From: Amoebophrya sp. A120
Taxonomy: Eukaryota; Protista; Dinoflagellata
Length of the DNA stretch: 64,000 nt
Direction of reading: 5' to 3'
Assembly (NCBI GenBank): GCA_905178155.1
Contig: CAJINV010000005.1
Coordinates: 3,292,833-3,356,832, forward strand
The translations under genes and the position numbers were made by a program. The notes beneath the pieces are model-generated. The model was not told the DNA's origin, ran no database searches, and was given only the letters and a program-made list of their open reading frames with translations. Positions 10,101 to 62,700 of the stretch are shown here, in pieces; positions within the stretch are counted from its first letter, which is position 1; every line of letters starts with the position of its first letter.

Positions 10101-13100
10101 CGAGCGAGCTCGCCTTCCGGGGTCAAATGGTGGAACGCTTGCCACCCGTGGACGTGCGACAGTTGGGGAACTGGGATCGAGTCGCCGGCGGAGGTGGGAC
10201 GACGGGCCATGGACCACTTGGAGCACGTAGTTCCTCTGGTGGTCCTCTGCAACAGGAACAGCAGCAAGATCTCCATCTTCAAAACACGACGATGCATTTC
10301 AACTTTTTCCCTCAAAGAGGAACTGCTTCTACAACAGGAGCTGCAAGTTCATCTTGTACGGAGCATCGCTGGAAGGAGATCCACTACGCGTGCGGGGTGA
10401 ATCTGGAGGTCGTGGATTCGGTGGAGATCAACGGCAGTGGAGCTAGTTGTGAGAACAGCAAGAGCAGTGACGGGGAAAATCAAGGGATGAAAAATGGCAT
10501 TGATCTCGACGAGCTTGCCAGTAGGAGCAGTGACGAGGAAAATAATGGTAATCTGCATCACGACCGAGAAGTACAAGACCACACTGGGCGTGTTGAAAAG
10601 CCGAACACGACGACCGCGAAAGGGAAGGACAAGTCGCAGGTCGTGAATGAAACTGTGGAACGGGAACTCCAGCCCATCACGCTGAAGCGCGAGCTCCGGA
10701 AGAAGCGAGTGGACGGCACCTGGGTCGAGACCAGCTGTATTCTGACACTGCATATCAAATGTAAAAGTGTCTGGGTCTGGAAGAATCATGCTGCTTTTGC
10801 ATGACACAGAAGGTCTGGCATGGAAGCTCTAGCGTCACAGGTTTCGAGAAGCGTTCGCAATGCCGAATCCGCATGACAAGTCCCTGACTTTGGTGACAGA
10901 AAGTGGGCAACTTTTGCTGCCTATGCATGAGAGATTTTTCTGTGTTCTGAAATGCGCATGACAAGTTCCAACCTTCCAGACCCAGACATTTTTACATTTG
11001 ATAGTGCAGCTGAAAAGTTTTCTAGATGGAATTTTCGAACATAAAGAAGAAGACGAGTTTTATCCTGACGGCACTAAAGCGGATGGCGACGACGTGGTCG
11101 ACGAGCAAAACAAAAAGCACTTCTTCTCGTTTGCTGGTCCTGCGCAAGGGGAAGATGAACTACATGCACAAGGTCCACGAGACGCAGACTTTTCCGCTTT
11201 TGCGTTCCCTGCTCGTTCGCAGAGCAAAAGCTCCTGCTCCGCGAGCGAAGAGGAGGATCGCCACGAAGGAGGGGACGTCGGTCGTGCAGGCACTGCTGCG
11301 GGCTCTGTTGGTAATAAAGGAGACCACGTCCTCGTCGAGAAAAACCACGTCGCAAGAAACGGAGTTGACTCGAGTACGAAAACAGGAACAAAGGTCGTGT
11401 CCTCGTCGTGTAAAAAACCGCGGCAACTCACGACCAAAACTCACTCTACGGTGACTGCCTTAACGGATGAACAAAAGGAACAGAAACAGCCAGAGTATGA
11501 TGAAGAGCCCTGCTTCTACGTGACCACGACCGAGCTTTTCCGGACGGTACTCCACCCCCACGAAACCCGGGAAGAGGAAGATGAGAACGCGATTAATTTC
11601 ATCCGGAACGAGCTGAGCAGCCCCCGGAACTTCCCGCACAAGACCTTTCGCGGGAAGAAGTGGAACTGCATCACGACGCGGCAGCAGAAGAACCGCGAGC
11701 AGGTGGTTCCGCTGGCCTGTGAGCAGCGGAAAAAGTGGCGACAGATGCGAAGACGGCTGAAGAGCGACCTACGGCCGGACCTGTACGGACACCGGGTCGT
11801 GCACGAGTACCGCGACGGCCGGATAGAGGTGGTGCACCAGCGGACGCGGCTGCTGCCGCTGCGGGGTTTGGAGGAGATCTTTTTGAGTGGAACAAATGGA
11901 GGTTGCTGTGATAAAAGTGAAAATCAATCCGGCAAGAAGAACCTCACCGGCAGCACGCTTGCGGAGCAGATTTTGAAAACGTCAAGCAATAAAGTCGATG
12001 TGAAAAAGTTGACATCCATTCTCCTCAAGCAGCTCCCCGACCCCTTCGAGTTGTTTCTGGAGCTCTGCTATGCACTGTAAAAGCTTCCTCGTAGTCGTAA
12101 GTAAAAATTAAAATTTTTGCAAATCTTGCATGAAAGGCCACAACCCTCTCGGGTTGTGGCCTTTCCTCGGAGGTGGGGTTGGGCTTGGGGCGCCAGGCGA
12201 ATGGACGGCTTCGCAGCTACGTTGTGATCGACAAACTGAGATCGACGATAATAGTTGCGTTGCTGGTTCTGTGCCAGTCGCGGGGCATGTTCGGGCGTTC
12301 CGGGCTGTGCTTTGTGCACCCCTCGGACCCCGCACTCCCCCGGGCTCGGTAGCGCAGTCTGTTAAGCATGACAAATGAAATTAAGCTCCCATCATGCAGA
12401 TGAGCCAGAGTCAGCATGACTTTCCTGTTCAAAAAATTTGTCATGCGCTTTATACTGCGTACGGGTACGGCAGAGCTTTTGCAATGTATATCTGCAAGGT
12501 GAACGGTCTGTCCACGCCGGAGAAAAAGCAGTTAGACGACCTGGACGCCTGCACGGCTGCGAATGCGGACTCCTTTCCCGCGGTCTTGCGGTACGAGAAC
12601 GCGGTCTTGATGCAGGAAAACGACTGTTTGTTGACCAACTCGCAAAAGAAGAAATTGAAACTAGCCGCCCCGGAGGCGTTGTGGCAAAATGCGGTGGGAG
12701 TGTTGGTGGGGCAAATGCAGGCGTGTTGCACTAGTAGTGCGAGTGCGGTGCGTACTGATCGTACTTCTTCTACGATGCGCGGAGGTTTGAAGCAGAAGCT
12801 ACAAGGCCCACCGGGCGGTGGACCAGCGGTGGAGGGCGTGCTGCAACAAGGAGCAGGGAGCGAGAGGAGCCACTCCTCGGTACAGTGTCCTCGTAGTTCT
12901 TTACGAGAACCCTCCGAAGTAGGACGCATCAATACGAAGACCAGTCCGCACTTCGGCCTCGCCCCCGAGAAGACTTGTGGTAATGAACAAAGTGGTCTTC
13001 ATGTTGGAGATAATTTGGCTTCTAGTGCTGGTGGTGGTACCGAGGCTGCAGCTTCGGGCTCAGCATCAGCTGCACACGATAGTACTACCGTGGTCTCACC

Positions 13101-16570: not shown

Positions 16571-16632
16571 TTCGCACGTTCCTAGAACCAAGTCCTAGAA
16601 ATAGTTTTTCGCACGTTCCTAGAACCAAGTCC
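16571..16632. repeat. Short direct repeat, 2 x 25 bp
   Basis: TTCGCACGTTCCTAGAACCAAGTCC occurs twice, intergenic. Confidence 0.8.
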
Positions 16633-21715: not shown

Positions 21716-24700
21716 ATGATGGTTTCCTGTGTCGGGCAGCTCTTGCTGTTGTTTTCCGGCAGTTTTTCTACTACTATCGGCGTGTTGGGTCGCGAAAAAA
21801 CCACATCGAGAACCACACGACTACAAAAAGAAACGAAAAAGAAACCGTCTTCAAGAACATCTTCCGGGGCCCCGATGGCAACGTCGACGAGTTCATCTTC
21901 TTTCACGCAGGAGCAGAAGAAGAAGAACTCGCCCTTCCTGCCTGATGAGCGCGTGGACTCCGACACGATTTTTCCGGACGAGGAAGTGTTAAAGCACGTT
22001 TCGCACGGGCACAGACTGGTCCGCACTGCTGGGTCCTCGTCGTGGTCACCAGTGTCCACGACCAGCACAACTGCTTCATCCCAGGGCGGCCGCAACGTGC
22101 CGGGCGGTACCTCCTTGTTCCCAGCAGGGGAACAAGAAATAAAGCCCTCGTTAGCATCTTCTTCATCTGCAGTAGGAGGGAAATTTTCATCTTCCGAGAA
22201 GTTGTCTAGCAGGAACAATGGCAGCACGGGAGATGTTGAAATCACGACGACGTCGTCGCGCTCGAACAGAAAATTTGGAACAACTACAGCCCAAAATAAA
22301 GTGTCTCCTGATCATGAAATCAGCATGAGGAGGACCGGCAGGATGAGAAAAGCGTTGGCAGATGACGTGTATCAAATGCAAGAATGTCTGGGTCGTCTGG
22401 AAACTTGCGCTGACGCATGGCAGTGAATAAGAAGCACTAGCACAGTGTAAAGATACACCGCCAAGCATGGCAGATTTAGGCGTGGCTCTTTATTGCGTAT
22501 TCATCCGGATAAGAAACTGCGTTTTTGTATGACAGACAAGAGGTGCTCTTTGAGGCCACGCAATACAGGGCTCAGAGTCATGCCAAGCTAGCATGAGCAT
22601 GACAAATTCAAATCTCGAGGACATTTTGAAAATGTCCTCGGGTCTGGGTCTGGAAAATTTCCAGACCCAGACATAAGTTTGCATTTCATAACGTGAAAGT
22701 CCCCGCCGCGTCAGAAGAGGAAGATGACCAACCAGTGGAGGAAGCCGAACAAGCTTCTGCGTCGGAAGAGTACAACTTTATAAAACTACACTTGATTCTT
22801 GAGATCATTTGTTCTAATATGCGCTGTAGCTGCTGTAGTTTATAGCTCCTGTTCCTCGAGCTGCACCGCCCAAGCGGGCAAGAACTGTTAAATGCAAACT
22901 GAAGAAGTTGTAGTTGTATCGCTTGAAAGTATTGAATTTGATGTGTATAATTGGAAAATGCTTGCAGAATAAAGAGCGCATGCTTTGCAGGGATGAAGCA
23001 GGAGGTGTTTCTCGTCCGACAGTTCTAACCCTAGGAGCAACCGACTCGAATCACAATTTGATATTGATTTCCCTCCCATCTGCCTGTCTTGTACAGGCGC
23101 AAAGTCTGTCTTGTACAGGAAAAAATGAACTTTTTGTTCTCTTGATGTACAGGAAAATTCAACAACCGCCTGCATCCGTGGCAGCTGATGTTCCAGTTCA
23201 CCACAAGCACGCCGCTCGCGTGACCAAGTACAACTACAACCAGGAAAATGAATCGAACCTCCTAAGTAGTGGCGAACCAAATTACGGCTACGCTAGCGGT
23301 AGAAGTTATGGGAGTGCTGTCAGGACCTCGTGAAATCGACAAAGTGAAAGTACTATGAGGTATTTCGGCATGCATAAAATCGATACAAGAACCAGTAGGT
23401 TGCGCCCCGAATTTCAATTTGTAAGCAGCGAATGACAAATTTTGGCAGCGACGATCAAATTATGCAGCTTGTCATGCTGTTTGTGTTTGGTGCAATGATA
23501 ATGAAATAGGCTGTTTTTGCCGTGCTCCCTTGTAGCTGTATTCCGGGCCCGAAACACGCTTACAGTGATGTCCCTCGATTGCCTTCTCTGCAAGACGGGT
23601 CCTCCGTGCCTCACATTTTATGCATCACAAATCTTTGCCGTTTCAAGCTCGTCGATTTCAAGCCTGTCACCCCCAGCTGCATAGAAGTACCAACAGCGCC
23701 ACGACGGCGACACCGCCCTCTGCCGATCTGACCGAGCCGCAAGACGCGTCCGCCCTTGTCTGCCGGTTTTGCAAAGCGGTGCTGCTTTTCCTGGTTTTCC
23801 TCGTGCTGGGGGCGACTTACCCGAAAGTGGTGAAAGTGTGTATAACCCGCTCAGGTGTTACAACAATCTCAAACGTTACAATAGAATCCAGAATTTGTGT
23901 TGCATGAAGAGCATGAGGAACGTGCAGAGTATTGCGCTTTTCGCAATACAAATTTCGGCAGATTCTAGTGCGCTTTGGCACTCCAGAACTTGTCATGCGC
24001 ACACCTATGCGAGTTGGGTAGATGGATCATGCACTTCTTGCATGACAAAACCCAGATTCTATTGTAACAGTTGAGATTGTAACGTCTGAGCGGGTCATAG
24101 TGTGGGACCGGTGGTTTGGCGGCGGACGGAAGATTATGCTCCGTGGAAACATGATGGCGGACACGACGGACTACAGCTGCGCTGGTGTATCAAAAAATCC
24201 AGACACGAGTATAAAATCTCGATCTGGACGATAAAGTAAGAGCGAGTGTTTTTGGTAAACCACACGAAATTTTTGACTTCGACAAGTTGAACTTCTATCT
24301 TGCATGGCAGATTGGATTCAGTGTTATAGAAACTGACAACTTCCCTTCCAAGAGCATGAGAAGAAACGACACAACAACTCCTCGACGTCATTGGCATTTT
24401 CCTATCTCGCAACACGAATATAATCCAGACCCAGATAATTAAACATGTTTGCAGTGTACGATACGCGCGTTCATTATCTTGGGAACTGCACCCGAAAATG
24501 GAGTTTCACGACTGGTCTTATCGCACGGAAAAAATGAATCATACTCATACTCGCCCGAGTTCGACCCTGAAAAGTCATCACTTTTTTGAAAAAAAGCCGG
24601 CACTCTTGCCGAAAAAGTCAAGTATTTCATCAGCGATTTTTTTTTTTCCGGCGGAGAGTTTGCGTCTCGTGGAGGTAAGGCCTGGAGTATTTTTTTGGAT

Positions 24701-36330: not shown

Positions 36331-36594
36331 AGGATATGGGCGACAATATGGATATGGTGGCGAGACACCATGACCGTAATTAAGGTTGTGGTCTGCTTTC
36401 TCGGTCGAAGTACAATTTGCAACGTTTTTTTGAGTCCATTTTTTTTTAGTTCGCTAGAAGAGCAGTGGCTCGTCGGTCCGGCGAGCGATGGTTTGTTGTT
36501 TCGACTCGCATTCTTGGACCCAATCTGCGAATAAAAAAAGCAAACTGGGGCCACGCATCTCTATCATGAGTGCTAATTTTTTTTTTTCCATGTT

Positions 36595-42390: not shown

Positions 42391-44539
42391 AGGCTATGGG
42401 CGGCAATATGGATAAGTACGGTGGCGAGCGCGAGACACCATGACCGTGTTAAGGTTGTGGTCTGCCTTCTCGGTCGAAGTTCAATTATTTGCGACGTTTT
42501 TTTGAATCCATTAGTTCGCTAGAAGAGCAGTGGCTCGTCGGTCCGGCGAGCGATGGCCTCTTGTTTCGACTCGCATTCTTGGACCCAATCTGCGAATAAA
42601 GAAAGCAAACTGGGGCCACGCATCTCTATCATAAGTGCTAATTTTTTTTTTCCATGTTGGCATTTACGCAAGTTTTTTATTCCATGCACAAAAGGTAGAG
42701 GATTCGCCAAGTGAATTTTTTCTACCGGTTTTGGTTTTTCGCAGCATCTGTATAATTCGGCAAAGTGATAAGTCAGCTCTTTGCTTTTTTTTTGGTGTGG
42801 CCCGGGTCCATCCTCGGGGAAGCTCGGACAAGGCGTCAACCAGGTAGAGGTGGAGCCCTAGCTTCTGCGCGCGCCTCCAGGTGGAGGCGTGCACCTGAGT
42901 AGTTCTCGTTTCCTTATTGTAAAAGCCACATGTTGGGCCTTTTTGTTTATTCTGAACCCATTTTGCATTTTCATATACTTTTAGCAGTGAGAACTCTCTT
43001 TGTGCCACCAGACCAGCAGTTATTTCAACAAGGGACGACGAGTAGCACGACAGCGACATATATCATGAACTCCAATGATCCATACTCTTACTTTTAGCTT
43101 GCAACGTAAATTAAGTATTTTTCTTTGCAGGAGGCACGACAGCGACTGTGTACGATTCACATATATCATTATCTTCTGAACTCTAGTGCGCAACACCATA
43201 TATCGTTTTTCTTTTTTCTTTTAGTTTTGCACAGAACAAAAGGGTTTTCGTTACTCTTACTTTTTTACCTTGACGCTTCCTGCTCAAGTCCGGAGCAGAA
43301 AGAAGGGGACAAGACTCTGGAAGGGGACCACGAGAGATTCCTATCAAAATGAACTATATCACTTGCACTCGTAGTCTACGCAGATGATGAACATCATCTA
43401 GAGCAACAGCAAATTCAGCATCGACGTGTCGGGTCTATTACTTCAGACAGTGAGCAAATTGTAATGGGATGGCGCGTTAGAAATATTGACGTGCTGTTCT
43501 CACACGACTGCTGGGAAGCAGTAAAGTGAAAGGATCTACTACGCTTTTTTCTTGTTCCAATCGATCATCGTGTTGAGACGTTACGTAATACAACAGCATG
43601 ATCTTCTGCTGGACCCTGAAGTAGATCATGAACAGAAACAGGCCAGAACAGCAGTTGGACAAAGACTATAGATACGAAGGATTTCATCATTTTCAGCATG
43701 TCAAATGACGCCAGGCACCAAAAATTCAGAGCTTGTTGATGTCGGTGGAGGAGGTGGAATTATAGATACGAGTTTCAATTTATTTAAATACTAGACGAGC
43801 TGAGGAGTCGTGGTCGCAGCGCGACCCCAATGAAAGTTTTTAAAACATTTTTTAACATTTGACGATCAACAAAAATCCACCAAATCGCTTCCGGATCAAC
43901 ATATCCCAAGATGAAAATACCACGGAAACTACACGAACGAAGACCAGATCCGGATCGGATCGAAAAAATGCACCTTGAGTTGGATCTCGAGCCATTCCCC
44001 CTCTGCCACAGTGTTGAGGTAATATTGTGCTCCGGAAAAATGGACAAGGTCACGATCACGATCTCACTTTTGAAATCGACTTATAAGTACGAAGGTGTAA
44101 GTACGGATTGTTGGTGCAGATTCTCCAGTATAAGTACCTACAAATAAGAATTCCTCCATTTGAAGATCCAGCGACAAAGAAATAGAAATAGGATACATTC
44201 TGCTCAAGAACGAGATTGATGTTGCATTTGGACACACGACCTAGACACGACAAGTTCTACTTCATCGCTCGTACCTTGCAGCTCTGGGGGAAGTAGTGGC
44301 AGTCTAAAGCATTGCTCAACATTGTTGAGCGACGTAAAGAACTACAAAGGAAAAATAGCTACAGACCTAATATTTGTAAGTGCATGTGAAGTGTAGTCTC
44401 TGCTGCCGGGTCGGTGATAGAAATAAGGTTGTTCCAAGAAAGTGAAAGACGACAATCTGGAATGCAGCAACGGCCGTAAATAATTATAATTATAGCTCGG
44501 ACCACCACTACTACAACAAAATCAAAAATCCTCACGACC

Positions 44540-50034: not shown

Positions 50035-50683
50035 TTTTTAGGCGGGACCCCGGGGAATTATAGATCGTGCTCGTGTGCAGCTTGGTTGTTGCATTTGCGG
50101 ACAAACAAGCTTCAACTTGTAGCTCTAGGAGCAGAACAAGCACAATGCGCTTCGGCAAGAAAAAGCGGAAACTTAGAGCTCGCGCCTGCGTTTTATTGTG
50201 TGCTGATGTGCATCAACTATCACTATGTAAAGGAAATCATGAGTGGTCTGCTTTCGACACATACAAAAGTGTTCGGCATCGAGGCTCGCCTTCGACGTAT
50301 CTACGTACGAGGTGATGTTCATCTTTATGGTCTTATTTTGCCGTGTGACAATAATGTCCCAAAGGTCCACGTTCATCTGTCTGTTGCTGTATTCGAGAGA
50401 TGGAGCGTCAACAAGAGTGTGTGGCCACAGAATCCGTAGTAGTTCTTCAGTGCTGTCACGGACAAGTATATGTATAACGGTGGGAGTACGCGCTTCGGAC
50501 GCGGCCCGTCCCGTTGTGCGGCATAATTTGATTTGCACCAACATTTGATGACAAGAAAACTGTCTTGGAACTGAGAAAAACAGTAAGTAACAACTACTTT
50601 CGTGGTCTCTTCGAGTACTAATTTCTTCACACAAGAACAACGCTTCCTCACCGGAAAGAACAAAGCTACCAGACCACATCAAG

Positions 50684-53600
50684 ATGGGCCGCGTTTCGAC
50701 GTTTTTTCCATCAAACCGTTCTCTCGCGTTGGCGACAGCCGTGGGTGCGGTCTCCCATCTGGTGGACCTTGTCCACTCGGTGGACGCAGCCTCCCCCCTG
50801 CGGACCCACGAGAACCAGAAGTTTTGGGACAAGCTGAGAGAGGGCACAGAAAACACCAGCAATGGAGGTGGTGCAACCGAACAAGAGGAGAAAATGGCGC
50901 AGCGGGAGAGGTTGTTTGACCGGGCGCTAGAGCTAGCGACGGCGCGCTCGTCGGGAAGTAGCTCCTCTTCTGCAGCTGGCAGTGGGAAAATTTTACCAGC
51001 AGAAGACGAAGAACGTGAATACGCAGCGGTGGTGGAAATAAAGTCAGCGAAAGATCAGGTTGAGAGCAGTCAAAGAACGTCGTCTCCAAGCACGACTACG
51101 GCCAACGAGAAAGACCAGGACAAGGACAGCGAGAACGGCACTATGAACCTGCAGACCACCGACCCCGAGATTGCGAAGTTGCTTCTGCAGGCCTCGTGTC
51201 AAATGTAAAAATGTCTAGGACTGGAAGAGTCATGCTGTTTTTGCATGACACAGAAGGTCTGGCATGGAAGCTCTAGCATCACAGGTTCCGAGAAGCTTCC
51301 GCAATGCCGAATCCGCATGACAAATCCCCCTTTTTGGTGACAGAAAGCGGGCAGCTTTTGCTACCTATGCATGAGAGATCTTTCTGTGTTCTGAAATGCG
51401 CATCACAAGTTTGTACTCTTCCAGACCCAGACATATTTGCAATGCATACCTCGGAACAGCTGCGCACCGCGTCCCACATCGTGTACCAACACGTGAATCA
51501 CGTGGCACTCGCGGCGAAAAAGCAGAAAAACAACCTCCCCGTCCACGAGGAGTTGAGGCTCCGGATCATGAGGGCCAAATGTCGGAAAAAAGACTACAAA
51601 AATTTGCAAACTTCTTTTTTTCCCATGGCGAGGAACGCCACACACCGTGGCGCGTTGTGCTCCCTGGCTTCAAGTCATGCGTGGGCTATTTTTCCAGTTT
51701 GCTTCGCGATTCACTTCATATTTTAAGCGCTTTGCTGAAGTTCGCGGGCTTCCTCTCATCCCGATTGGAGGTTGTGTGGTGGGCGCAGTTAGTTTTCTAT
51801 TCCGTTTGCCGGATCGACAACACCATCGACCCTGTGATCATATACAAGGCGCTTTCCGGTTTTTCCGGTTTGCCTTGTTGCTCCTTTTAAATTTACCAAA
51901 AAAAGTTCCCAACTTCATACCCTTTCAAAAAGTTTCCGTAAACACGAGCGGAGTCGGAAAGATTTTGCGAATGTTTCCGAGAGTTTTCGTTCTCTTTTTT
52001 TTCTCTTTTCATTTTTTTTCGCGAAAATCGATTTTTGTCATTTTTTGAATTTGGGTCTTTTTGCTCCATCGAACGCGTCATAGCATGCGTGTTCGAAGTA
52101 GGCGGCTTCAAAACCGCGTGGGCTTCTCGTTTCTTTCTCGCCTAGTAAAGTTTTCTTGTGGGTTTTTGCAATGTTTCTGCAATGACACAAGACCACACCT
52201 GGGCGGGACGTTTCCTTTTCGCTTTGCCATGCGCTTTCTTCCAAGTTGTTTTTTTGGCCGCTCTCCTATTGGGTGGCGGCCTTGTAAATATTTCGGTCTT
52301 TTTTCCAAGGCAGTCATAATCAGGCCTCGGCGCTTCAAGAGGAGTCCGATTGGATTTTGGATTCCAAAGCATACCATCCGGCCCCCTGGCGTTAACTGAA
52401 AGCAAGAAAACCAGAACGACCCACCTTGTTCGCATCTCAACACCACGGCCAAACGGCTCGCCTTGTCCCCACCTAGATTCGCCGTTCGCTGAAAGCGAGA
52501 AAACCAGAACGACCCGCCTGGTTCGCATCTCAGTCCATCGGCATCATTGCGAAAGCGGTCGGGGCATGCCTGGTATGCTGGGGAAAAATAAAAACAAAGA
52601 GAAAGAAAGCCAAACGGCCCGCCTCTTCCCCCTCTAAAACCACCGGCGTGCCGCCGCGGCCTCGTTGCCATGCTGCTGCCTCACGCGTTTGCGCGTTGGG
52701 CGCCTACGTAATCCGCCCGGGGCTGGCGCGTGTACACGCAGCCCCGATGGTGTGGGGCGCACGCCTTTTGTGGTGTGCATGCCCAGCATCACAGCCATAC
52801 GGCTCGCCTTTTCCCCACCTAAGTCCCCCGCTCGCTGAAAGCGAGAAAACCAGAACGACCCGCCTGCTCTCGTCTATCTGCGCCCAGTCCCTTCCTGTTT
52901 CTATCTCGGTCGTGCCGGTTGCTTTTCTTGATAGTTTACGACTTGCGTCCTCTCTGTTTCTTAAGTTACAGCAGCGCCTTTGTTTCTAAAGTTATGATCG
53001 TGCTAGACTGTTACTAAAGTTATGGTCTACGACCATGGCAGCGACTTGCTCTCTGCGATCTACTTGCTCGTCGACCGCGATGGCAAAGGCGGCAGAGTCC
53101 AACGCGATCGCTTTCCAGGCAGTCATAATCAGATCGATTTCGGTCTTTTTTCCACGCGATCGATTTCGGTCTTTTTTCCAAGGCAGTCATAATCAGGCCT
53201 CGGCGCTTCAAGAGGAGTCCGACTGGATATTGGATTCCAAAGCAAAACTGCTGGATTACGAGGACGAAGTCACCCTGAAGAAGGACAAAACGGCCCGGAT
53301 CCATATGAGAGTGGTGTACAACTCGAACTCTCCCTCTACCTCATTTGTGTTATGCAAAATAAAAATATAAATACTATTACTAAGTTATTCTATTCACCCG
53401 ACAGCGACACCTTGTTCGTCAGCACTCCTTGCATCGACAAATTTTGGAACCTCGAATTATAGGACTACAATCCGCATGCGCATGCAGATTTGTCATGTGG
53501 AAGCCCCTTATTTATATTTCCTGCTGTTGCTTCTGCTTGTGTTGCTGCTCAGGCCCTTCAAATGAGGGGCAGCAGGGGGAGGTCTGCACACTCATAACCC

Positions 53601-54781
53601 ACCAACTGGAACCATTAATGGAACCCGAAGTGGCCACCATGGGAGACGTTCTGACAAACTGCAGGAAGGGACGGGAAGCAGCGGGGGATGTGATTAAGTA
53701 ATAGTTTTTGTTGATGATGTGTTGTTGTCATGCGTAGGGAATTTTAATGAATCGTTATCGTACTTGATTCGTCCTCCGCCTTCCTGATGAAAGTATCTTC
53801 TTCATGCTGCCTGTCAGGGTAGTGGCAGGAGGAGCATCCATGCGATTCTATTTCTAGCAAGAAACTGTAAGACCGATCTAAATCATACAGCCCCAAGTAG
53901 ATACAAAAATAAACCCACCAGGCGCGACCTGTACCACCCGCGGGCCGACAAGGTCCGCGTGAGTAAGGAGGTGAAGGAGGTGGCGAGAGAGCTGCAGGAC
54001 GTCGCTGGGGAGATCCGCATATCCTGTGCAAAAGTATCGTAGTCGTACTCGTATAAATGCATTACAAATTTCCTCAGCATGAGAGATAAAATTTGTAATG
54101 CTGATTTACCTTGAGAGAAAGATTTGTAATGCATGATTGCAATACCAATAGAATACGAGTGCGATGCTTTTGGACAGGATACCGCAGCGAATACATGAAG
54201 ATGATCATGGGCTTTGCTAACGCGATATCAAATGCAAAAGTGTCTGGGTCAGGAAGAATGCAAGATCTGTCATGCATATTTCTCATGACCCATGATGCCT
54301 GTAATGCATGGCCTAGCATCGCAGACTTTTAGAGGGCTTCCAGATGCACCTTCCGCATGAGAAAACCCTGTCCGTGTAGCGCAAATTGTGCCCCTCTTGC
54401 TGGTCATGCAATACAAATTTTTGTCGAGTCCAAAAACAGCATGACAAGTTGCAATCTTCCAGACCCAGATATTTTTGCAGTTGATACGCGATCGTGGAAA
54501 ATTTTTCGGAGAACAAACCGGCGCATCATTCCGCGGGCGGGATGAAAAACAATCTGGTAGAGCTACAGGTGAAGGAGAAGGAAAAAAGTTTGGCGAAAAC
54601 GGATCCGGGTATTAACATTAAGGCGGGTGATCAAACGATCTCAACATCATCCGCAACCACGTCGAGTAGTAGTACACGGATCATTTCAAGGAAGACAAAC
54701 AGCAGGGCCGCGGCGGGCTCAAGAACAAGGTCGTCGGAGACTTCGGAGGAGAAAACTTTGCCAGATGTGTATGCTTTTTGA
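50684..54781 (+). CDS. Hypothetical protein with four introners and a 1.6-kb GT-AG intron
   Basis: Exons 50684-51196, 51454-51580, 53183-53303, 53602-53697, 53922-54019, 54187-54225 and 54492-54781 stay in one frame. The 3' end is uncertain. Confidence 0.6.
51197..51448. mobile_element. Introner, family A (TGT start variant)
   Basis: Interior closely similar to 10753, with exact DR CCTCG. Confidence 0.92.
52291..53244 (+). repeat. 80-bp direct repeat of a splice acceptor plus exon start, flanking a repeat-rich spacer
   Basis: 52291-52370 vs about 53164-53244. Internal GCTGAAAGCGAGAAAACCAGAACGACC repeats near 52396, 52488 and 52835. Confidence 0.8.
53304..53596. mobile_element. Introner (family of 13346)
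   Basis: TATGAGAGTGGTGTACA...TGCACACTCATA with flanks ATCCA/ACCCA. Confidence 0.85.
54020..54181. mobile_element. Introner, family E
   Basis: TATCCTGTGCAAAAGTATCG...CGATGCTTTTGGACAGGATA with exact DR CCGCA. Confidence 0.93.
54226..54486. mobile_element. Introner, family A
   Basis: Family A IRs with exact DR CGCGA. Confidence 0.93.
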
Positions 54782-55743
54782 GATCGATCGAGTCTCCTCG
54801 ACCATGTGGTTTTTATATTGATCGGTGATTCTTATTTCGCGTTCACACAACAACGTACGACTACGATTAACAATTCCCTTACAAAAACATCAACCTCGAG
54901 AATACAGAAAGTTACTTGCACAGATATCTAAAGGGTGTTGAGAGCTCTTTCTTGCTCACTTCACCACACGATCTACATCAAACACAATTTCACGACCAAT
55001 GAGCTCCATGCACTCGAAAGAGGCTGCTGCATGGGCAGCTCCATATCAACATAGAGATAGACGAGGACGAACTGAAGATGGAGCGAAAAATAACGTCAAA
55101 ACGACCATCAAAACGCGTAGCAGGATGGATGCTGCTCCTGTTAGAAGTGATGATAACACAGTTTGTGGTCAACGTTCCGCGCTCCGTGTTGGGTACAACT
55201 GCTTTTCGAGGCCAGTACCACTGTTGCGACGACCACAACCAGTGGCATTTTTGAGTGCTTGTTCGTTGTTTCATCTCGGGATAAACTTGAAGCCGTCGGC
55301 GCGTTAATTGGTTTATTCCAGGTCAGCATCAGAAAAAGAACTGGAAAAGCATATAGCATTAGCATATTGCAAGAAATAGCAAGATGGATCTTCACCTTTA
55401 CTGAGAAGCTTCTCAAATAGGTATAGGACTAAGTAGTATCACAATTTCACTGTGTTTTTCCAACTCACTTCGCATCTTCGGTGCAGTGACATGTTCATCT
55501 TGATCGGCTCTCAAACAAAAAAAACGTGTGACTATACTGAAAAAAATACTAGAAGTTCTCACTTTTGGTTTTGCCGCTGTGAAATTCGCATGAATCCCCA
55601 TGCATATATAAAGATGAATAAAATTCGCCACTGAGCCACCGTCGTATTATTTATTTTCCCACTCAGATATTAGTCTGTCATATGTGATAAGGAGTTGTTT
55701 TTTCCAGCACTTGTATGCACAAATCCGATACAAAATTTTCAAG

Positions 55744-58700
55744 ATGGTTTTCCTGCTGTCTGAAGAGGATTTCCACCGGCTTTCGAAGCCGATGGAAAAA
55801 CGGGTGCGGTACCTGGAAGAGCAGGTCACACTCCTGACCAAGGCGCTCCACGACGCAAACCTGGTCGAGATTGGCTCGCCGAACGCGTGCGGAGTGGACT
55901 TGGAATTCATGGAGGAAAATGGATCATGTGCTGGGCTGCAGGACACCGACATGATATTAAGCGGCCATCAAGAGATGAACCACGAGCACAAAAAGATGCG
56001 GGCTACGGGTCGTGAAGTAGATGATATAGAAGTTTCCTCTTCTTCTTGTCGGAATATTACTTCTTTTACCGGAAAAATACAGAGGTGTGACACGACGACA
56101 ACGCACACGACAGATATCAAGAACACCAAGAAAGCGGTCAAAGAGCAAGATGTAGTCAAAAACCCATTTGAAGAGGACATTGCGAATTTCAAACTCGACG
56201 ACCTCGAAATAGAAATCGACGACGACGCAGAGGACGGGTTGGCGCTCAAGCCGCATCCCGCAACCGAGCTTCCCCTGGGAGGTGGAGACGCGATGAACAA
56301 AAATAACGATAAAAAACAAAAACCTGCGAACACTTCTAGAAATGCGGCGCTTCATCTGCCGGATCAGCAGAAACAAAACGAGGCCGAGGCGAAGCGCGAG
56401 CAAATATATAACCCTGACTCACCGGGGTTCACTCTCAACGAGCTAGACGGGATAGAGGACCTCAACACACGCCTGCAGCAGGAAGTGGAATATCCAGTGC
56501 AACAAATATGATGTCTGGGAGGTCCGCCTCTGGAACATAATTCCAACTTGTGATGCGGAGTTGTCAGGAGACGAGGAGGAGGACAAAAAAGATGTCCATG
56601 TTCGATTCAGACTAGGCATGGAAATAAAGCCTCCGCGGAATATGCAATGCTTTGTGTGCATTGCAATGCTGGGTTTTTTATAGGGTGCAAAAAGGGCGTG
56701 ACAAATATGTTTTCTTCGGGAGGACCCAGACATGTTTGATATGGAATCAGGAGGAAGCAAATTGGGGGCGGAAGAACTCGCGAGTGGGGCAGCAGGGGTA
56801 CAGTCTTTTACTTTAATGTATCAGTCTGGTTCTTCTTCTTTCTTCTTCTTGATAGTCGATGTTGGAGTAGCTGTCAGACTTTCTGTGCCGCTGCTTGAAA
56901 AAATTTATTTGTTCTATGCCACACACAGCCTGCCCGTCGGCGAGACGAGCATGGTGGGGGCAGCTCTTTGAGCACTTCTAAACAGGAAACAAACAAAACG
57001 GACGAGGGAAGCAATAAGTTGTCCTTCTTACCGTTTTTGAGCAAGACGTCCACAACAAGTGGTATGCTCCCTGGTACCGGCGTGTCCTCGTCCTCTTCCT
57101 CTTCTTCTTCATCCCGCGCGGGCCTCGTCAATAAAGGTGAAAATAAAGTCGACCTTCAGACCAGATCCTTCCAAAACAAAACCGCCAATATTAGAGAGAA
57201 CATCAAAACGAGCAGTGCCAGCCGCCGGGATGTTGAGCAAGATCGTGGTCCTAGCGCTATCAAAAGTACGAGGGGGCGTCAGGAAGAAAAGGAAGCAACT
57301 GCTTTGAAGGTGGAGCGAAGTTCTGGTGGTGGCGCTGCTGTAATTTCCATGCGGGAAGGCGGTTTACCGAGCCAAAGAGTGCTGCTGCCCAATTCATCAT
57401 CATCATCCCGAGGCTTAGCTGCTCGGCGGTCCCGGTCTGCGAGACGGCCTCTGCGGTCCCGTGAACGGACGGGCGGGACGAATTACCCGCCAGAGAGCAG
57501 TTCTAGTAGAACGACCAGGAGCAGAAGACCGGCGGCCCCACCAGTGGGTGTGAGCAGGTACGCAGATCACCTGTCCGAGCCGCGCAACAAACACAGAAGT
57601 CGGGAGGACCGCGAGCGGCGAAGACATTCGCCGATCTCCTCCCGGCTCCTGGCGGCGGAAGAAAGAAACAAACTGGTCGAGCTGCCCCACATGCGGACCC
57701 AGCGACCCATCTCCGAACGGGTTTTGGAAGCCGAGGAAAAAAACAATCGGAAAAACGTACGACCTGCTCAGAATTAAATGATACAATCCCAAACGGCATA
57801 GTTATAGACTCTTCCTTGATTTGAAGATTATTGTTTTTCATGAACTTGCGCTTTACTATACAAAGTTCGTGAGGCGGGTATTTATTTTGGCCGCTCCAGA
57901 ACTTGATGTCCTGCGTATACTTCCTGTCGTGATAAGAGGAACGAGAGGCTGCCAGATCGTGCCTTTTGCTTTTTGCATAGATTTAGATAGGCTTGCGTTT
58001 TATTTGTCGTCACCTTTGAGGTTGTATTTGTCACTACACCTGAGCAGGTCATAAAACGTGGTGAGCTCTATTTCGGCGAGAATTCAGCTGGAGGAGGGAC
58101 ATCAACCACGGACTTCTACTATGAACTGCAAAAGTAGCGCACTAGTATAAATTGCATTACAAATCGGCTCAGCATTACAAATTAAATTTGTAATGCTGAT
58201 TTCCCTGAACACCTAGATTTGTAATGCATAACTGCAATTAGTACGAGTACGATACTTTTGCACAGGATATCTACTTCTCGTGTCGACCGCAGGAGGTCGA
58301 GAAGTGCTTTGCGTTCTACTACACGAACACGAGCAGCTTCTGCTGCGGAAAGGAACGAACACGAAGCACAACGCTCTGCGTTGTTCAACACCAAAAATCC
58401 GCGGCGGTTTTCCCTCGAGAGCAGGAAAGACAAAGAGACACCCAAAACTCCTTCGAAGTCGAACAGTGAACAAGTTTTACAGGTGGTGGAGGCCACAGGC
58501 AACATAGGCATCATATGAACTGCAAAAATGTCTGGGTCTGGAAGAGTTGGAACTTGTCATGCGAATTCATTCTGGAATAGGCAAAAATTTATATTGCATA
58601 AGCACCAAGAGCTTCCCATTTATTGCCACGCAAATAGGGAATTTCTCATGCGGGATAGACATCAGGAGGCCTGCGCAAAACCTGTAATGCTTTTGCGTGC

Positions 58701-58966
58701 ATTAGAGACCAGTGAGTTGCGTGATCGAGAAGATGCATGACAAACTCCTGCAATCTTCCAGACCCAGACATTTTTGCATTTGATACATCAAGTTTGAAGG
58801 CGAAAAAAAGCAGGACAAGAAGGAGGATACCAGACCACCGTACTCGATCTTCAGTAGCGGACACAACAAGGGCGGGCCCACTAACAAGGGGAATTATAAA
58901 CCACCTGCCAAAGTCGTAACGGTGCTACCACCACCGTTTATCCCGACGAAAAACAAGGAAAGGTAG
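55744..58966 (+). CDS. Hypothetical low-complexity (S/R-rich) protein
   Basis: Exons 55744-56490, 56747-56796, 56986-57756, 58088-58119, 58275-58513 and 58791-58966 are in frame after removing three introners and two GT-AG introns. Confidence 0.55.
56491..56741. mobile_element. Introner, family A-like, degenerate
   Basis: TATC..ATGTCTGGG / CCCAGACATGTTTGATA with exact DR TGGAA. Confidence 0.88.
58120..58269. mobile_element. Introner, family E (150 bp, smallest complete copy here)
   Basis: Interior homologous to 54020, with exact DR TCTAC. Confidence 0.92.
58514..58785. mobile_element. Introner, family A
   Basis: Family A IRs with exact DR CATCA. Confidence 0.93.
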
Positions 58967-59725
58967 GAGCGAGTGGTTGTATGCATATGCCACCGCATCA
59001 TGCGCTCATTTCTCTTTAGTAGTCTACTTCGAGCAATGAGAATGACATCAAACAACAATAATTCGGAGGTAGCACATTTCTTTATTACTTCTGCACCCAG
59101 ATGATAGAGTTAGAGTTAGAGATAGAAGCTAGCTCTGTAAAAAGCAGCCTCACTCTGGTGGAGATGGTCCTCAACATGGACGCCGGTCGTCCTCGCGCAC
59201 CATTTCTCCAGCTAGTTCTTGGGTTCCACTCCTTAGAAAAAACTCAACGCGTCAAAAATAAAGCCAATGAGTCAGAGTCGAGCGTGTGAAAGTTTGTGCG
59301 TTAATGACTGCGCTTCGCTTTTATCATGCGGTAGCGTAGTTTGAGGTTGTGGATAAGTTCTTGAGAGAAGCTTGGAGATTTGAAAATCGGGCCTTAGAAG
59401 CTTCTTGTTTCGCTCTTCTCGTGTCGGAAAGTTTAATATTTCTCGTAGAAGATGATACAGTCTGTCTCTGTCCCTCGTGCATCTCAATCATCAAGAAATT
59501 AAGCGTCGGCATTTTCACTTTGATCCTAGTATAGATGGAATTTGTTCCTTGCTTGTCAACATCTAGTGTTTTTTCTACCCCAGCGTCCTTGTTGTTTTTC
59601 TCTTGTCCAACATCGTCGTGAGGACAAGAGGTTCGCGTTCAAAAAAAGACATCATACATAAGTAGATTTTCAGCAGCAAGGAAAAATTCATCGAAATCTA
59701 AGATCGTGAAAGAACTTTAACAGCC

Positions 59726-62700
59726 ATGCCTACGGCAGCCTCAAGTTCTTCCACTAAATTTCTTCTGTCGACTACCAGCGGCGTGCAAAGCAGCAGTGCT
59801 AAAAACATGCCAGCTGCGGGTAAGATGAACAAGACTTCATCCTCCAAGGCCGCACCTCCAGCGGGGAACAAGAATATCAAGACGAAGAGCAGTAAAAAGC
59901 CCATGCTGTCTGTGAAGGAAATGCGGGAGATGAAGAAAAAGAAGATGGTGGTGCGGAAAACCACCGCAGCGGCAGCTATGAAGAAAAAACCCGCCGCCTC
60001 TGGTGCAACTGCTTGGTATTGCGGACGACGGAACAAGAACACCCAGACAAAACAAGGGGAAGCGAAATCGAACAAATCGTCGAAAGGAAAGACGAAAACA
60101 CATGCCAAAAAAGAAGCAACCGAGGAGGAAGAAGACGAAGAGGACGATTCTTCAGAAGACGACACAGACTCAGACGAAGACCCGCGGTTGAAGTGGCCCG
60201 CGCTGGAGTCGAACCCCGAGGCGTTCACGAGTTTCATGCACCGCGTGGGCGTCGCAAAGCAGTTATCGACTGCAAAAATGTCTGGGTCTGGAAGGATGTA
60301 ACATGTGATGCGCATTTCGGAACACACAAAAATTTCTCATGCAGAGGTAGCAAAAGCTGCTCACTTTCTGTCACCAAAGTGGGGGATTTGTCATGCGGGT
60401 TCGGCATTGCGGAAGCTTCTCGAAACCTGTGATGCTAGAGCTTCCATGCCAGAGCTTCTGCGTCATGCAGAAACAGCACGACTCTTCCAGACCCAGACAT
60501 TTCTACATTTGATAGCAGTGGCAGTTCCACGACGTTTTCGACTTGGACATGCTGGACCAGATTCCGGACGTCACCGCCCTGGTTTTGCTCTACCCGATCG
60601 TGGACGAAGAGGGCGAAGCACTCATGCCCACGGCGAACCGGAAACGTACTTTCTGTTTCTATAATTTCCGACAGAATAAAGAACTTTGTCATGCATGCCT
60701 GAGTCTAAGTAACCTGTGCCTGCTGTCTGTGCATGTTTAATAAGTAAGTAACTTGTGCGAATCCAAGTGATTCTATGACGCAATTTTTGACAGCATGAAT
60801 TTTTACACGTGCTGACGAGTGAGACAAGTGATTAAAAATAAACTAACAGCAACATGCCTATGCACAAATGCTCTTACTTTACAAACAGGAGTGAAATTGT
60901 CCGATGACGCCCCCTTCTTCATCTGGCAGGGCGAAGACCTCGGGAACGCGTGTGGTACCATTTCCATTATCCATGCGGTTGCGAATATGGGAGTGTCAGG
61001 ATCGAAATCGACAAAATCGAAAAGTTTGTAATGCGTAAAACGTAGGGCACATAAGGCCTGTGTTGGAGAGGAGGCAAATGAGACCGATTGCAAGCCTGTC
61101 TAGCCCCAAACATGTATTGCCAGAGTAGCATGACAGGCGCAGTCTTCTTTGCCCAAACAGCATGACAGGCTGGATTTTGATGCTCCCAAAATTTGTCATG
61201 CGGCGGTTGGAAACTGAGGCTCCAACTGGTATCGACTTTATGCGTCGCAAATTATTTCGATTTTGTTGATTTCGATCCTGACGCTTCCATAGCGAACTGC
61301 GAGCAAGTGGCGAAAACCGTCAAGAAAAAATCCGCGCTGAGCGAGTTCTTGGCGAAATGTAAAAAGATGACGCCTATCAAGTGCAAAAATGTCTGGGTCT
61401 GGAAGAATGCGAACCTGTTATGCGTGTTGCGGATCATACAAAAATCTGTGTTGCATGACTTGCAAAAGGTCTCCACTTCTGGCCATGCTGAGAGGGCATT
61501 CCTCATGCAGAATAGGCATCACCAAGGGACTGCAGAACGTGTGATGCTACTCCCTGCATTCCAGACTTGGCGGAGCTTGGAGAAACTGCATGACAAATCT
61601 CGGAATCTTCCAGACCCAGACATATTTGCAATCCATAACGCCCGAGGAACGCGGGAGTTTGCTCGACCAAGACGAAGCAATCATGGAGCACGTACTTTTT
61701 CGTGGTAGTTGTGGTCGTGAAGATCATTGTGATATCGATATGTTGTAGTTCCATGTTGTATGCAATACAACTGTCTACTTCGGCCTAGCTAAGAAGGTCT
61801 TGACGCACGAGACCGATTTGTATCGCAGCATTGCATCTTCAGCTGGCTTTTTTCTGATGCAGAAATAATACGGGAATCATGATACATGACCAAAAATACA
61901 TCTTCAGGTTGCCGAAGTCGCTTGCGATGCGGAGTTGAACCAGACCGATTGGTACAAGTTGGTTGAGGACGATGATGACGACGACGATGACGATGAGGAG
62001 GATATTCTGTTGAAAAACGTCCCCGCCCCTCAGACTCCAGATGTTGCTGTTGGGAACTCTGCAACCCAAATCCAGGTTTTTTAAGACTCAACACGCATGA
62101 CAATTCAAAGTCTCTGCTCGTACTATCTGTAGAGTAGTGCATCGCGCAACAAGTTCTCAGCAAGGGCAGCCGCAATTATACCTTGACATTAGAGCCATCT
62201 TCTTATTGTGTTTCCAGCATATCAAGTTCCAAAACGCGACTAGGGCGGATGTATCATGTTGCAAATGTTTCAGTAGATGCAAATCTGCCTGACACCAGCG
62301 CTAGTAGGGAGGTGGAGACGTTTTTACTTGGGATAGATGAAGACGAGGATGAAGATCCGGAGGTTGATTTAGACACCGACCACCACTTCATCACCTTCAT
62401 ATGCATCACAAAATTTGAATTTCGTGCTAGAAGTAATTGCCTAATTCGAATGATCCAATGATTTTTTGCTTAACCACACTAGCATGGAAAAGAAAAACTG
62501 AATAAATGAAAAAGAAAATTGCATGTGCTGTTTGATACCCCCTCCAATGATCGACATTTTCCATTTTGCACGAAGTACTATATTGCAATTGCCGCGAGTT
62601 GTGCGAAGATGTTTTTGCGCAGCATATCTCATCGAGAAAAACAACGTGATCTATGAATTGGACGGCCTCCGCAACATGCCACTTAAGGTCGGCACGACCA

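Follow-up and report, generated by a model that had tools for sequence, protein, structure and literature searches.

Introner elements of one family occur in both orientations within same-strand genes of Amoebophrya sp. A120 and are missing from RNA-like contigs either way

The window analyzed here, i.e., the whole 64,000-nucleotide stretch of an Amoebophrya sp. A120 contig, contains genes that are interrupted by short elements with inverted-repeat ends. The host genes to which reference is made are the following.

44530..50034 (start approximate), plus strand: DEAD-box RNA helicase gene, from Pfam matches and an exon model
50582..55170, plus strand: host transcript of element copies F and G, with no protein family match, spanned by one RNA-like contig
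59702..63149, plus strand: ubiquitin C-terminal hydrolase gene (Peptidase_C12), its start being that of the open frame and not a mapped start codon

The helicase gene has six introns, i.e., copy E of family 1, copies a and b of family 2, the element at 49181 (all listed below) and two GT-AG introns at 45680-45953 and 48031-48312. The transcript at 50582..55170 includes a GT-AG intron at 53698-53921, while the hydrolase gene has eight introns, six of the hairpin type (copies I, J and K among them) and two GT-AG (60646-60888 and 61692-61907). When joined at the RNA joints described below, the hydrolase exons yield one open reading frame (ORF) along which the Peptidase_C12 pieces, each alone below the Pfam cut-off, are colinear on the plus strand. 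Pfam matches (E <=0.001) were obtained for five of the 98 ORFs of at least 130 amino acids on both strands; all five are on the plus strand, and DEAD and Helicase_C are the only matches above Pfam's own cut-off. Together with the colinear Peptidase_C12 pieces and three GT..AG joints, which also all read on the plus strand, these matches bear out the original prediction that every host gene is on that strand. The elements interrupt conserved coding motifs: copy E splits the DEAD-box motif TPGR between TPG and R, and copy I sits between Peptidase_C12 profile positions 20 and 24.

Elements of family 1 are ~250 nt long, with inverted-repeat ends (TIRs) of ~31 nt, or up to ~50 nt when a subterminal motif is counted, and a 5-bp target duplication. 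The window holds at least ten copies, for which the strand denotes the orientation of the interior relative to copy B.

4464..4767, minus: copy A, an older copy whose ends are longer and variant and whose duplication is imperfect; same orientation as J (score 60 vs 21)
10753..11003, plus: copy B, which sets the reference orientation; duplication CTGCA/GTGCA
22371..22689 (approximate to within a few bases), no strand: copy with a diverged interior, orientation not callable; duplication ACGTG/ACGTG
46153..47597, plus: copy E, 1445 nt; duplication GGGCA
51197..51448, plus: copy F, which starts with TGT; duplication CCTCG
54226..54486, plus: copy G; duplication CGCGA
58514..58785, minus: copy H, as judged from sequence alignments; duplication CATCA
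60264..60514, minus: copy I, reverse-complementary to B and F; duplication GCAGT
61375..61637, minus: copy J; duplication ACGCC
62726..62987, minus: copy K; duplication TCCTC

The core (16 nt) of the terminal repeat was found at 24 places with at most three mismatches, as compared to 0.58 expected and a maximum of four in shuffled sequences (n=100). A scan that required TAT...ATA termini, with the end triplet preset (ATA or ACA), together with inverted ends and a duplication of 5 bp, found 19 elements in the window and 0, 0 and 0 in three block shuffles. The duplication is perfect in 16 of these 19 elements, the TIR arms of which match at 20-30 of 30 positions; a different public assembly yielded 114 further copies, 99 of them with a perfect duplication. 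Neither a transposase nor an integrase domain was found among the 98 window ORFs of at least 130 amino acids (Pfam, both strands), and no autonomous partner was seen. The elements are thus short and multicopy, with TIRs, a target duplication of fixed length and no transposase ORF, as are MITEs; family 1 is a group of transposon-like introner elements, miniature in size, with TIRs of ~31 nt and a duplication of 5 bp.

That one family lies in both orientations was claimed from the sequence at the outset and holds exactly as stated, both in repeat pairs and in alignments of the interiors alone. Complementarity is 88% over 251 nt between positions 10753-11003 and 60264-60514, and 91% over 213 nt between 51199-51411 and 60300-60512, while 10755-10967 and 51199-51411 form a direct repeat (91%). 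Between the segments 46153-46307 and 61483-61637 the complementarity is 88% over 155 nt, and 54224-54486 is inverted against 62726-62989 in two alignments (77% and 83%). The interior-only alignments place copies B (10753), E (46153), F (51197) and G (54226) in one class and A (4464), H (58514), I (60264), J (61375) and K (62726) in the other, i.e., four copies in one orientation and five in the opposite one, all in hosts on the plus strand. Copy E is a J-type element with an unrelated insert of 1183 nt at 46308-47490. Removal of copy B together with 5 nt opens a 199-amino-acid frame on the plus strand across the junction.

No register within the duplication gives a GT-AG reading of family 1, and GY..AG was found in none of the six registers of any copy checked; the description of these elements as introns with spliceosomal consensus ends is corrected on this point. 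Given these non-canonical ends, it is itself doubtful that the signals of the spliceosome are the ones involved. The introners of Micromonas pusilla and Aureococcus anophagefferens, reportedly identified by Huff, Zilberman and Roy in 2016 as non-autonomous DNA transposons that have TIRs and duplicate their target, are said to become introns upon insertion and to be removed exactly, as are the elements discussed here, but to have one canonical site of their own and to co-opt the other from the duplication, which yields GT/GC-AG ends. A canonical introner of that type was rejected for family 1 on the GY..AG result.

Elements of other families are found in the same genes.

47636..47952, plus: family 2 copy a, with ends that begin TATGGGAGTGTCAGG, unlike those of family 1; duplication ATCCG
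48383..48712, minus: family 2 copy b, which lies opposite to a and c (scores 86-96 inverted, 14-26 direct); duplication ACACA
60986..61291, plus: family 2 copy c; duplication GCGAA
49181..49388, no strand: the one copy of a further family, its inverted ends 31 nt long; duplication GCAGT
62003..62335, no strand: fourth-family element whose duplication is imperfect (GAGGA/GATGA) and thereby informs on the cut register

A non-canonical intron of 1665 nt at 51547-53211 has a 7-nt direct repeat and no clear inverted ends; its joint is found in three of the four RNA-like runs, which tells against inverted ends as the guide to removal.

The RNA-like contigs stem from four runs (X1-X4) of two samples in one study, and are presumed to be RNA, a status supported solely by their skipping of GT..AG introns. 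Three such introns are missing from them, with joints that read GT..AG on the plus strand, and the contigs therefore behave as spliced cDNA. Among the 15 joints listed, out of 27, 12 are non-canonical and occur in up to four of the four runs. All four runs skip copy F at joint 51191>51449 (257 nt, i.e., 252+5), copy G at 54219>54486 (266 nt, 261+5), copy I at 60257>60514 (256 nt, 251+5), copy J at 61369>61638 (268 nt, 263+5), copy K at 62720>62988 (267 nt, 262+5) and family 2 copy c at 60980>61292 (311 nt, 306+5). The element at 49181 is skipped at joint 49175>49389 (213 nt), and a piece of an RNA-like contig begins at 48712, the end of family 2 copy b. An exon model of the helicase gene from which 1450 nt are taken out at copy E reproduces a 2960-nt RNA-like contig and its anchor points exactly, with one ORF; the same model removes the inverted family 2 pair a and b and gives a complete DEAD-box ORF. 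For both orientations and in two families, the RNA-like contigs thus miss exactly the element and one copy of the duplication. Neither orientation is left unspliced, as F and G on the one hand and I, J and K on the other are all skipped; such a one-sided outcome had been named beforehand as speaking against the original prediction. Where the duplication is imperfect, the upstream variant is the one retained in the RNA (three of three cases); at the 62003..62335 element, for example, the upstream G is kept and not the downstream T. Among raw RNA reads that carry the same species label, 122 and 2 were mapped, to repeats only.

Retention of one duplication copy would also follow from precise, transposase-mediated excision of the elements from DNA, i.e., a somatic process like that acting on ciliate internal eliminated sequences, with transcription of the emptied copies. 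This explanation is very improbable. In the DNA-like contigs (X5), every exon-element junction listed, with 15 of 608 joints listed, is retained, the exon running into the element ends at a depth of 41-45x, as for unique DNA; furthermore, ordinary GT..AG introns are missing from the same RNA-like contigs, and the 98 window ORFs lack a transposase domain.

The balance of orientations, for which the original prediction called, was determined for the 114 further copies, of which 73 are borne in exons and have a callable orientation. Relative to the host coding strand the split is 34:39 (p=0.64), and there is therefore no orientation bias. When applied to 22 window elements, the strand caller returned 15 plus, 7 uncalled and no minus, and pairs on the same contig agreed in 25 of 26 cases. 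The flanking exon displays no base preference or consensus at 67 sense-oriented empty sites.

The removal of both orientations is likely to be directed by the inverted-repeat ends, which would be the same on the RNA either way and are predicted to form a stem of ~30 bp; the explanation as a whole, with the steps that follow, we regard as probable. Cut-and-paste insertion would be blind to orientation, hence both would arise, and selection would spare both because the ends are symmetric. At the RNA level, machinery that locates the foot of the hairpin would cut 0-2 nt ahead of the element's first base and 3-5 nt past its last base, the polarity of the cuts being set by the 5'-to-3' direction of the RNA and not by the element. 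This machinery may be a much-relaxed spliceosome, as proposed by Farhat et al. 2021. Stems of 24-35 terminal pairs are predicted in 14 of 14 hairpin introns, as compared to 0-9 in three GT-AG introns. The end-to-end duplex energy ranked 0 of 100 shuffles for three elements with strong TIRs, 5 of 100 for the 62003-62335 element and 3-7 of 100 for three weak-ended non-canonical introns; for five GT-AG introns the ranks were 5, 27, 54, 69 and 90 of 100. Conservation of the TIRs is in itself uninformative on splicing, because transposition needs inverted ends anyway. On the sense strand, G.U exceeded A.C mismatches in the window (38:20, one element out of register included), while selection for a wobble-tolerant stem was not found in 75 further copies (G.U 56, A.C 68), which therefore give no sign of RNA-level selection on pairing.

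The same count is in line with another reading, in which a divergent spliceosome recognizes the ends by their linear sequence, i.e., 5'-terminal UAU... and 3'-terminal ...AUA, in many cases accompanied by an A-run and a U-run, and the stem is incidental, a side effect of the TIRs of the transposon. Because inverted ends yield the same RNA ends both ways, this reading explains orientation independence equally well. It is consistent with the removal of weak-ended introns, with the resemblance of the U-rich 3' arm to a pyrimidine tract, and with a TAT start in 18 of the 19 scan elements (the exception being copy F, with TGT), in which the preset end triplet does not count as independent evidence. 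The terminal motif of A120, i.e., TAT, 7 nt and AAA, is conserved over A120 families according to Farhat 2021 (PMC7789003). In the window, family 1 ends (TAT, CAAATGC, AAAAA) fit this motif of TAT, seven variable bases and at least three A, and it is also found in the families at 54020, 26164 and 49181. However, the A-run and U-run are missing from family 2 and from the element at 23841, and family 2 is removed nonetheless; the families have nothing in common past three terminal bases, and GT-AG introns in the same genes lack such ends. On balance, recognition of linear ends appears rather unlikely. Recognition by the ends or the stem fits with the identical removal of families with unrelated ends and interiors, and with copy E, where the unrelated 1183-nt cargo does not prevent removal.

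A different candidate for recognition is an interior motif (TTGTCATGC / GCATGACAA) with a palindromic CATG core, which is found on both strands of the interior in most copies and, being alike on both, could serve as a required site that is blind to orientation. The 7-mer occurs 27 + 28 times in the window, as compared to 3.6 expected per strand, a count inflated by the common descent of the copies, and it is conserved in eight of eight aligned family 1 copies. Between 44 and 64 kb, all 28 motifs lie inside introns, 26 in non-canonical introns of several families and 2 in GT-AG introns. Within a single intron, however, the motif stands in either orientation and at shifting places, the two copies closest to the ends merely extend the inverted repeat, and subterminal repeats are usually transposase-binding sites. 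A requirement for the motif is accordingly improbable, although its presence on both strands leaves a small probability of an orientation-blind interior signal; no distinct pair of branch-point signals was found on the two strands. The original proposal that the ends or stem, and not the interior, are recognized is thus largely supported by the removal of both orientations, the tolerance of an insert, the like behavior of unrelated families and the lack of a base preference in the flanking exon, with the qualifications that stem and linear end motif are inseparable here and that the CATG-core motif lies on both interior strands.

In Farhat 2021 (PMC7789003), more than 60% of Amoebophrya introns are described as non-canonical, and introner elements with 8-20-nt inverted repeats and 3-5-nt direct repeats are reported, with TAT, 7 nt and AAA as the A120 repeat motif. 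That study presents a hairpin model, in which the hairpin permits "the joining of exon boundaries", and proposes a relaxed spliceosome for Amoebophrya, where U1 snRNA was not found. Similarly, the A120 "TIR DNA" families in the supplement of Gozashti et al. 2025 (PMC12130899) are 256-261 bp long, with mostly non-canonical splice sites. The elements in the window share with those of Farhat 2021 the RNA-confirmed non-canonical ends, hairpin-capable inverted repeats, direct repeats at the boundaries, many strain-specific families and ends of TAT, 7 nt and an A-run; the genes, too, are alike, in one-directional blocks with canonical and non-canonical introns in one gene. Because of this match the kind is already known, and the window elements are most likely the very introner elements described for A120. 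They differ in nothing essential. The additions to the published picture are that the inverted ends are longer (~31 vs 8-20 nt), that the duplication is constant at 5 bp in this group, that both orientations are removed and equally frequent, and that the upstream duplication copy is kept. In the text and supplement of Farhat 2021 (PMC7789003), as far as available, the word "orientation" is applied to genes only, and it has 0 occurrences in 12 of the 14 supplement files of Gozashti et al. 2025 (PMC12130899). Within these sources, orientation indifference is an unreported yet expected corollary of the published elements, i.e., a small new detail.

MITE-derived introns of Fritillaria borealis likewise have non-canonical ends and are removed efficiently by the host (PMC11282704), but their dominant ends are AG-A(N) (per Farhat 2021), while here neither end has a fixed dinucleotide. 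The nonconventional introns of euglenids (Milanowski et al. 2014, 2016; Guminska et al. 2018, 2021), as covered in a review (PMC11282704), resemble the present elements in their non-canonical junctions, inverted ends that unite the intron ends, duplication-like junction repeats, suspected MITE origin and coexistence with conventional introns. Euglenids are a lineage unrelated to Amoebophrya; their stem is short (CAG at +4..+6 and CTG at -8..-6), and their introns leave as full-length circles after the conventional introns. The CAG/CTG pairing was rejected for family 1, which, with numbering from the ends of the element, has CAA at +4..+6 and ATT at -8..-6.

A route free of the spliceosome is possible, albeit doubtful. 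In it, a structure-reading endonuclease-ligase would locate the foot of any long hairpin in a pre-mRNA, cleave there on the 5' side and some five bases farther out on the 3' side, and join the exons. If it were true, every transposon of the superfamily would be an intron from the outset, whatever its orientation or cargo, and nuclear mRNA splicing in an alveolate would include a second, independent system that is convergent with the nonconventional introns of euglenids. The offset 3' cut would then mirror the 5-bp stagger of the transposase.

The window harbors at least ten copies of family 1, a family of introner-like elements with inverted-repeat ends; nine of these copies are about 250-300 nt long and one, copy E, spans 1445 nt.

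Copies of family 1 in the window (letters are handles)
Copy A: 4464-4767
Copy B: 10753-11003
Diverged copy: near 22371-22689
Copy E: 46153-47597, 1445 nt
Copy F: 51197-51448
Copy G: 54226-54486
Copy H: 58514-58785
Copy I: 60264-60514
Copy J: 61375-61637
Copy K: 62726-62987

The elements terminate in inverted repeats of ~31 nt, where the first bases are TAT and the last bases ATA, and they are flanked by a 5-bp direct repeat, referred to here as the duplication, which is perfect in seven of the eight copies with clear ends (4/5 positions in B). A 16-nt core of the termini is found 24 times in the window at up to 3 mismatches (0.58 expected). A scan for elements that combine inverted TAT..ATA ends with a 5-bp duplication identified 19 elements from at least six families in the window, and none in each of three block shuffles. 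Within the window no transposase was found, and neither Rfam nor a tRNA search yielded a match. The large size of E is due to an insert of 1183 nt (46308-47490), which is bounded by AGCATGG and AGCATGT, has no inverted ends and contains a tandem repeat of ~35 nt near its 3' end. In DNA-like contigs from elsewhere position 46307 is joined directly to 47491, i.e., a short form of the E-type element is present at other sites.

According to the available text of Farhat et al. 2021 (PMC7789003), more than 60% of the introns in Amoebophrya sp. A25 and A120 are non-canonical, and introner elements constitute a subset of these, with inverted repeats of 8-20 nt, direct repeats of 3-5 nt at the boundaries and strain-specific families. 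The A120 repeat motif is composed of TAT, seven variable bases and at least three A; in both A25 and A120, U1 snRNA is undetectable and the genes are arranged in co-oriented blocks (PMC7789003). Family 1 matches every testable feature of the introner elements described in that text, which makes A120 or a near relative the most likely origin of the window. The accessible parts of Gozashti et al. 2025 (PMC12130899) list 58 introner families in A120, including "TIR DNA" families of 256-261 bp, mostly with non-canonical splice sites. Both the kind of element and the idea of a hairpin are already published.

The original prediction held that the same family is found in both orientations inside genes that are all located on the + strand. 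Alignment of repeat pairs in the window showed that all pairs on which this claim was based are real. For B and I the complementarity is 88% across 251 nt, for F and I 91% across 213 nt, and B and F form a direct repeat at 91%. J is 88% complementary to the left part of E, and both K and H run opposite to G. With the ends trimmed, the interiors define two orientation classes, B/E/F/G and A/H/I/J/K, and eight copies turned one way align as a single family with 97 invariant columns. Family 2, a second element family with ends that begin TATGGGAGTGTCAGG, is also found both ways, with copies 47636-47952 and 60986-61291 in one orientation and 48383-48712 in the opposite one.

The + strand assignment was borne out for every host gene for which there is evidence. 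A DEAD-box helicase gene (DEAD and Helicase_C above the Pfam cut-offs) is interrupted by E, two family 2 copies and one further element, where E splits the TPGR motif into TPG and R. Copies I, J and K interrupt a gene for a ubiquitin C-terminal hydrolase (UCH); copy I resides between positions 20 and 24 of the Peptidase_C12 profile (exon pieces colinear, each below the cut-off). Joined at the joints observed in RNA-like contigs, this gene yields one open reading frame with the catalytic Cys and His motifs, and its eight introns are composed of six of the hairpin type, i.e., element-derived and non-canonical, and two with GT-AG ends. Removal of the element together with one copy of the duplication restores the + strand frame at B, E, F, G, H, I, J and K; for copy A no removal length was found that keeps an obvious frame. 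One RNA-like contig ends at 59106 with eight A in a loose run, which may mark the poly(A) site of the + strand gene hosting H.

Removal from RNA was examined using contigs of four RNA-like runs (X1-X4; two samples from one study), in which about half of the window's words are present and whose RNA nature is a guess of the tool; in two DNA-like runs (X5 and X6) 86% of the words are present. Because the X1-X4 contigs skip three GT..AG introns, they behave as spliced cDNA. Mapping at 99% likeness gave 27 joints, 15 of which were listed, those of H and E not being among them.

Segments skipped in the RNA-like contigs, i.e., element + 5 nt (each in 4/4 runs)
51192-51448: copy F, 257 nt
54220-54485: copy G, 266 nt
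60258-60513: copy I, 256 nt
61370-61637: copy J, 268 nt
62721-62987: copy K, 267 nt

At each of these joints 5-7 letters could belong to either flank, and these letters correspond to the duplication. Because F and G as well as the oppositely oriented I, J and K are absent from the RNA-like contigs, both orientation classes are removed to the base, and one of the outcomes by which the prediction could have failed, that one orientation is left unspliced, was not seen. Among the 15 listed joints, another six non-canonical ones mark different elements that have either inverted ends or short direct repeats. An exon model of the DEAD-box gene, from which E, both family 2 copies and the element at 49181 were taken out as element + 5 nt and two GT-AG introns as usual, is exactly 2960 nt, the length of one X1 contig (record 1). 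The model matches the anchor points of this contig and reads as one complete DEAD-box helicase frame, which indicates that E is removed despite its unrelated 1183-nt interior insert, and that two oppositely oriented family 2 copies are removed within one transcript. In X5, DNA-like contigs run from exon into element ends at every junction listed, at a depth of 41-45x that resembles unique sequence, i.e., the elements reside in bulk DNA. The elements are real, and they are absent from RNA in both orientations.

Among the raw RNA runs of the same species label (X9-X11), X9 and X10 gave only 122 and 2 mapped reads, located on repeats or repeat ends, and these reads are presumably from another strain. 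Their near-absence except at repeat ends implies that the label spans strains or species whose sequences are more than 5% apart but whose element ends are shared.

The ends used in removal are non-canonical. A start with GT or GC combined with an AG end is found in none of six registers of any family 1 copy; the three GT..AG introns observed in these transcripts lack inverted ends and show the plain pattern G|GTA... and ...CAG|G. A canonical reading, with GT inside the left end and AG made with the first flanking base, works only in three of eight copies (B, E and I) and contradicts the observed joints. In a separate element, 49181-49388, the left arm contains GTAAGT and the right arm CTAAC, i.e., a textbook 5' splice site and branch point, which owe their existence to the one mismatch between the arms. 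Neither is used in the RNA, where the joint is located at the element ends. A non-canonical intron of 1665 nt (51547-53211), with a 7-nt direct repeat, GAGGAGT, no clear inverted ends and further repeats in its interior, has its joint in three of the four RNA-like runs (absent in X3).

Three non-canonical introns have imperfect duplications (GAGGA/GATGA, ATCCA/ACCCA and CTTCA/TCTCA), and in all three the RNA retains the variant bases of the upstream copy. The cut is thus polar, which suggests that the direction of the reaction is set by the RNA rather than by the element. If one rule applied to all introns, the 5' cut would precede the element by 0-2 nt and the 3' cut would follow it at a distance of 3-5 nt. 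We infer that removal is catalyzed by a relaxed spliceosome or another enzyme, and that either the stem or an end motif is used.

The count of orientation relative to transcription that the prediction had called for was done for family 1 in a public contig collection, which was scanned with a 19-nt end pattern. At least 146 loci were found, 145 from one assembly; one locus, L112, was a chance match. The matches listed include none of the window copies and 114 complete family 1 copies, in which the 5-bp duplication is perfect in 99, 4/5 in 10 and lower in 5. The host strand was called from a codon log-odds score trained on + strand reading frames of the window; applied to 22 window elements, several with flanks that overlap the training frames, it gave 15 + calls, 7 uncalled and no - call. 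Pairs of called copies on the same contig, among the matches listed, agree in strand in 25 of 26 cases, as expected for a genome with one-directional gene blocks. Relative to the host strand, the two orientations are represented by 34 and 39 copies (p=0.64; 73 callable of the 114 listed, 41 uncalled), and single contigs carry both orientations side by side. If one orientation were not removed, a strong bias would be expected among exon-borne copies, and no such bias is seen.

The element ends read identically on RNA in either orientation. Fold predictions, with rough z-values from 8 mononucleotide shuffles, gave 24-35 terminal pairs in 14/14 hairpin introns and 0-9 in three GT-AG introns. The end-to-end duplex energy of three elements with strong terminal inverted repeats is better than that of 100/100 shuffles; in ranks among 100 shuffles, a fourth-family element (62003-62335) is at 5, three weak-ended non-canonical introns are at 3-7, and five GT-AG introns are at 5, 27, 54, 69 and 90. 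In 67 reconstructed empty sites read on the sense strand, the flanking exon has no preferred base at any position, and no target preference was seen. The interior tolerates inversion as well as enlargement by 1.2 kb, and families with unrelated interiors are removed alike. Together with the polar cut, these observations favor the symmetric ends or their stem as the signal over an interior branch point.

Whether the stem itself is read was addressed by comparing G.U and A.C mismatches on the sense strand; their ratio was 38:20 in the window, where one element was out of register. The excess was not replicated in 75 further copies (56:68), and the larger sample gives no support for RNA-level selection on the stem. 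Transposition itself requires inverted ends. Because of this requirement, the null result of the wobble test and the 1665-nt intron that has no clear inverted ends, a stem and a linear end motif are inseparable here.

The interior is not featureless. The motif TTGTCATGC and its complement are found 27 and 28 times in the window (3.6 expected per strand), and single elements hold it in both orientations. In the part from 44 to 64 kb, TTGTCATGC(R) or its complement is found 28 times, always in an intron and never in an exon, as judged by comparing positions by hand with joints and elements; 26 reside in non-canonical introns of several families and two in GT-AG introns (53727 and 60688). The pair closest to the ends lengthens the inverted repeat to ~50 nt. 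This motif could be a subterminal transposase site common to many families, or an intron mark. The original proposal that the termini or stem, and not the interior, are recognized therefore stands in part: inversion and the 1.2-kb insert are tolerated, but TTGTCATGC is found on both strands of the interior, and stem and end motif are not separated.

The text compared of Farhat et al. 2021 and Gozashti et al. 2025 does not address how the elements are oriented with respect to the gene. In the main text and supplement of the former, to the extent available, "orientation" is applied to genes only (PMC7789003). The main text of the latter uses the word once, for a filter that demands 5'-to-5' end alignment, and it is absent from the supplement as covered, 12 of 14 files (PMC12130899). 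The method of Gozashti 2022, in the part seen, allows "opposite-orientation insertion". Indifference to orientation is an expected corollary, not found stated in the texts compared, and the cut polarity and tolerance of a large insert are small additions to what is known. How most introns of Amoebophrya are removed in the absence of canonical splice sites has been a question since 2021, and the window sharpens the constraints: the signal survives inversion of the element and a 1.2-kb foreign insert, needs no particular exon bases and leads to a polar cut. In practice, pipelines that demand 5'-to-5' alignment of copies, as does the 2025 survey in its available text (PMC12130899), will fragment such a family or miss half of it, and GT-AG-based gene finders will predict these genes incorrectly.

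Other repeats are also found in the window. A tandem duplication of ~6.09 kb has units at 33436-36586 and 39532-42651 (90-97% identity), each with its own fourth-family element (33904-34189 and 39997-40282), where the flanking duplications are identical except for the final base (GGTAG/GGTAA and GGTAG/GGTAC, respectively). At 20435-20724, two arrays of the 11-nt tandem repeat GAATCGACAAG are mutually inverted and 86-94% complementary. Nested long inverted repeats at 30719-31881, with outer arms of 247 nt at 94% and inner arms of 89 nt at 98% and 58 nt at 97%, form a palindrome of ~1.16 kb in a region without Pfam matches.
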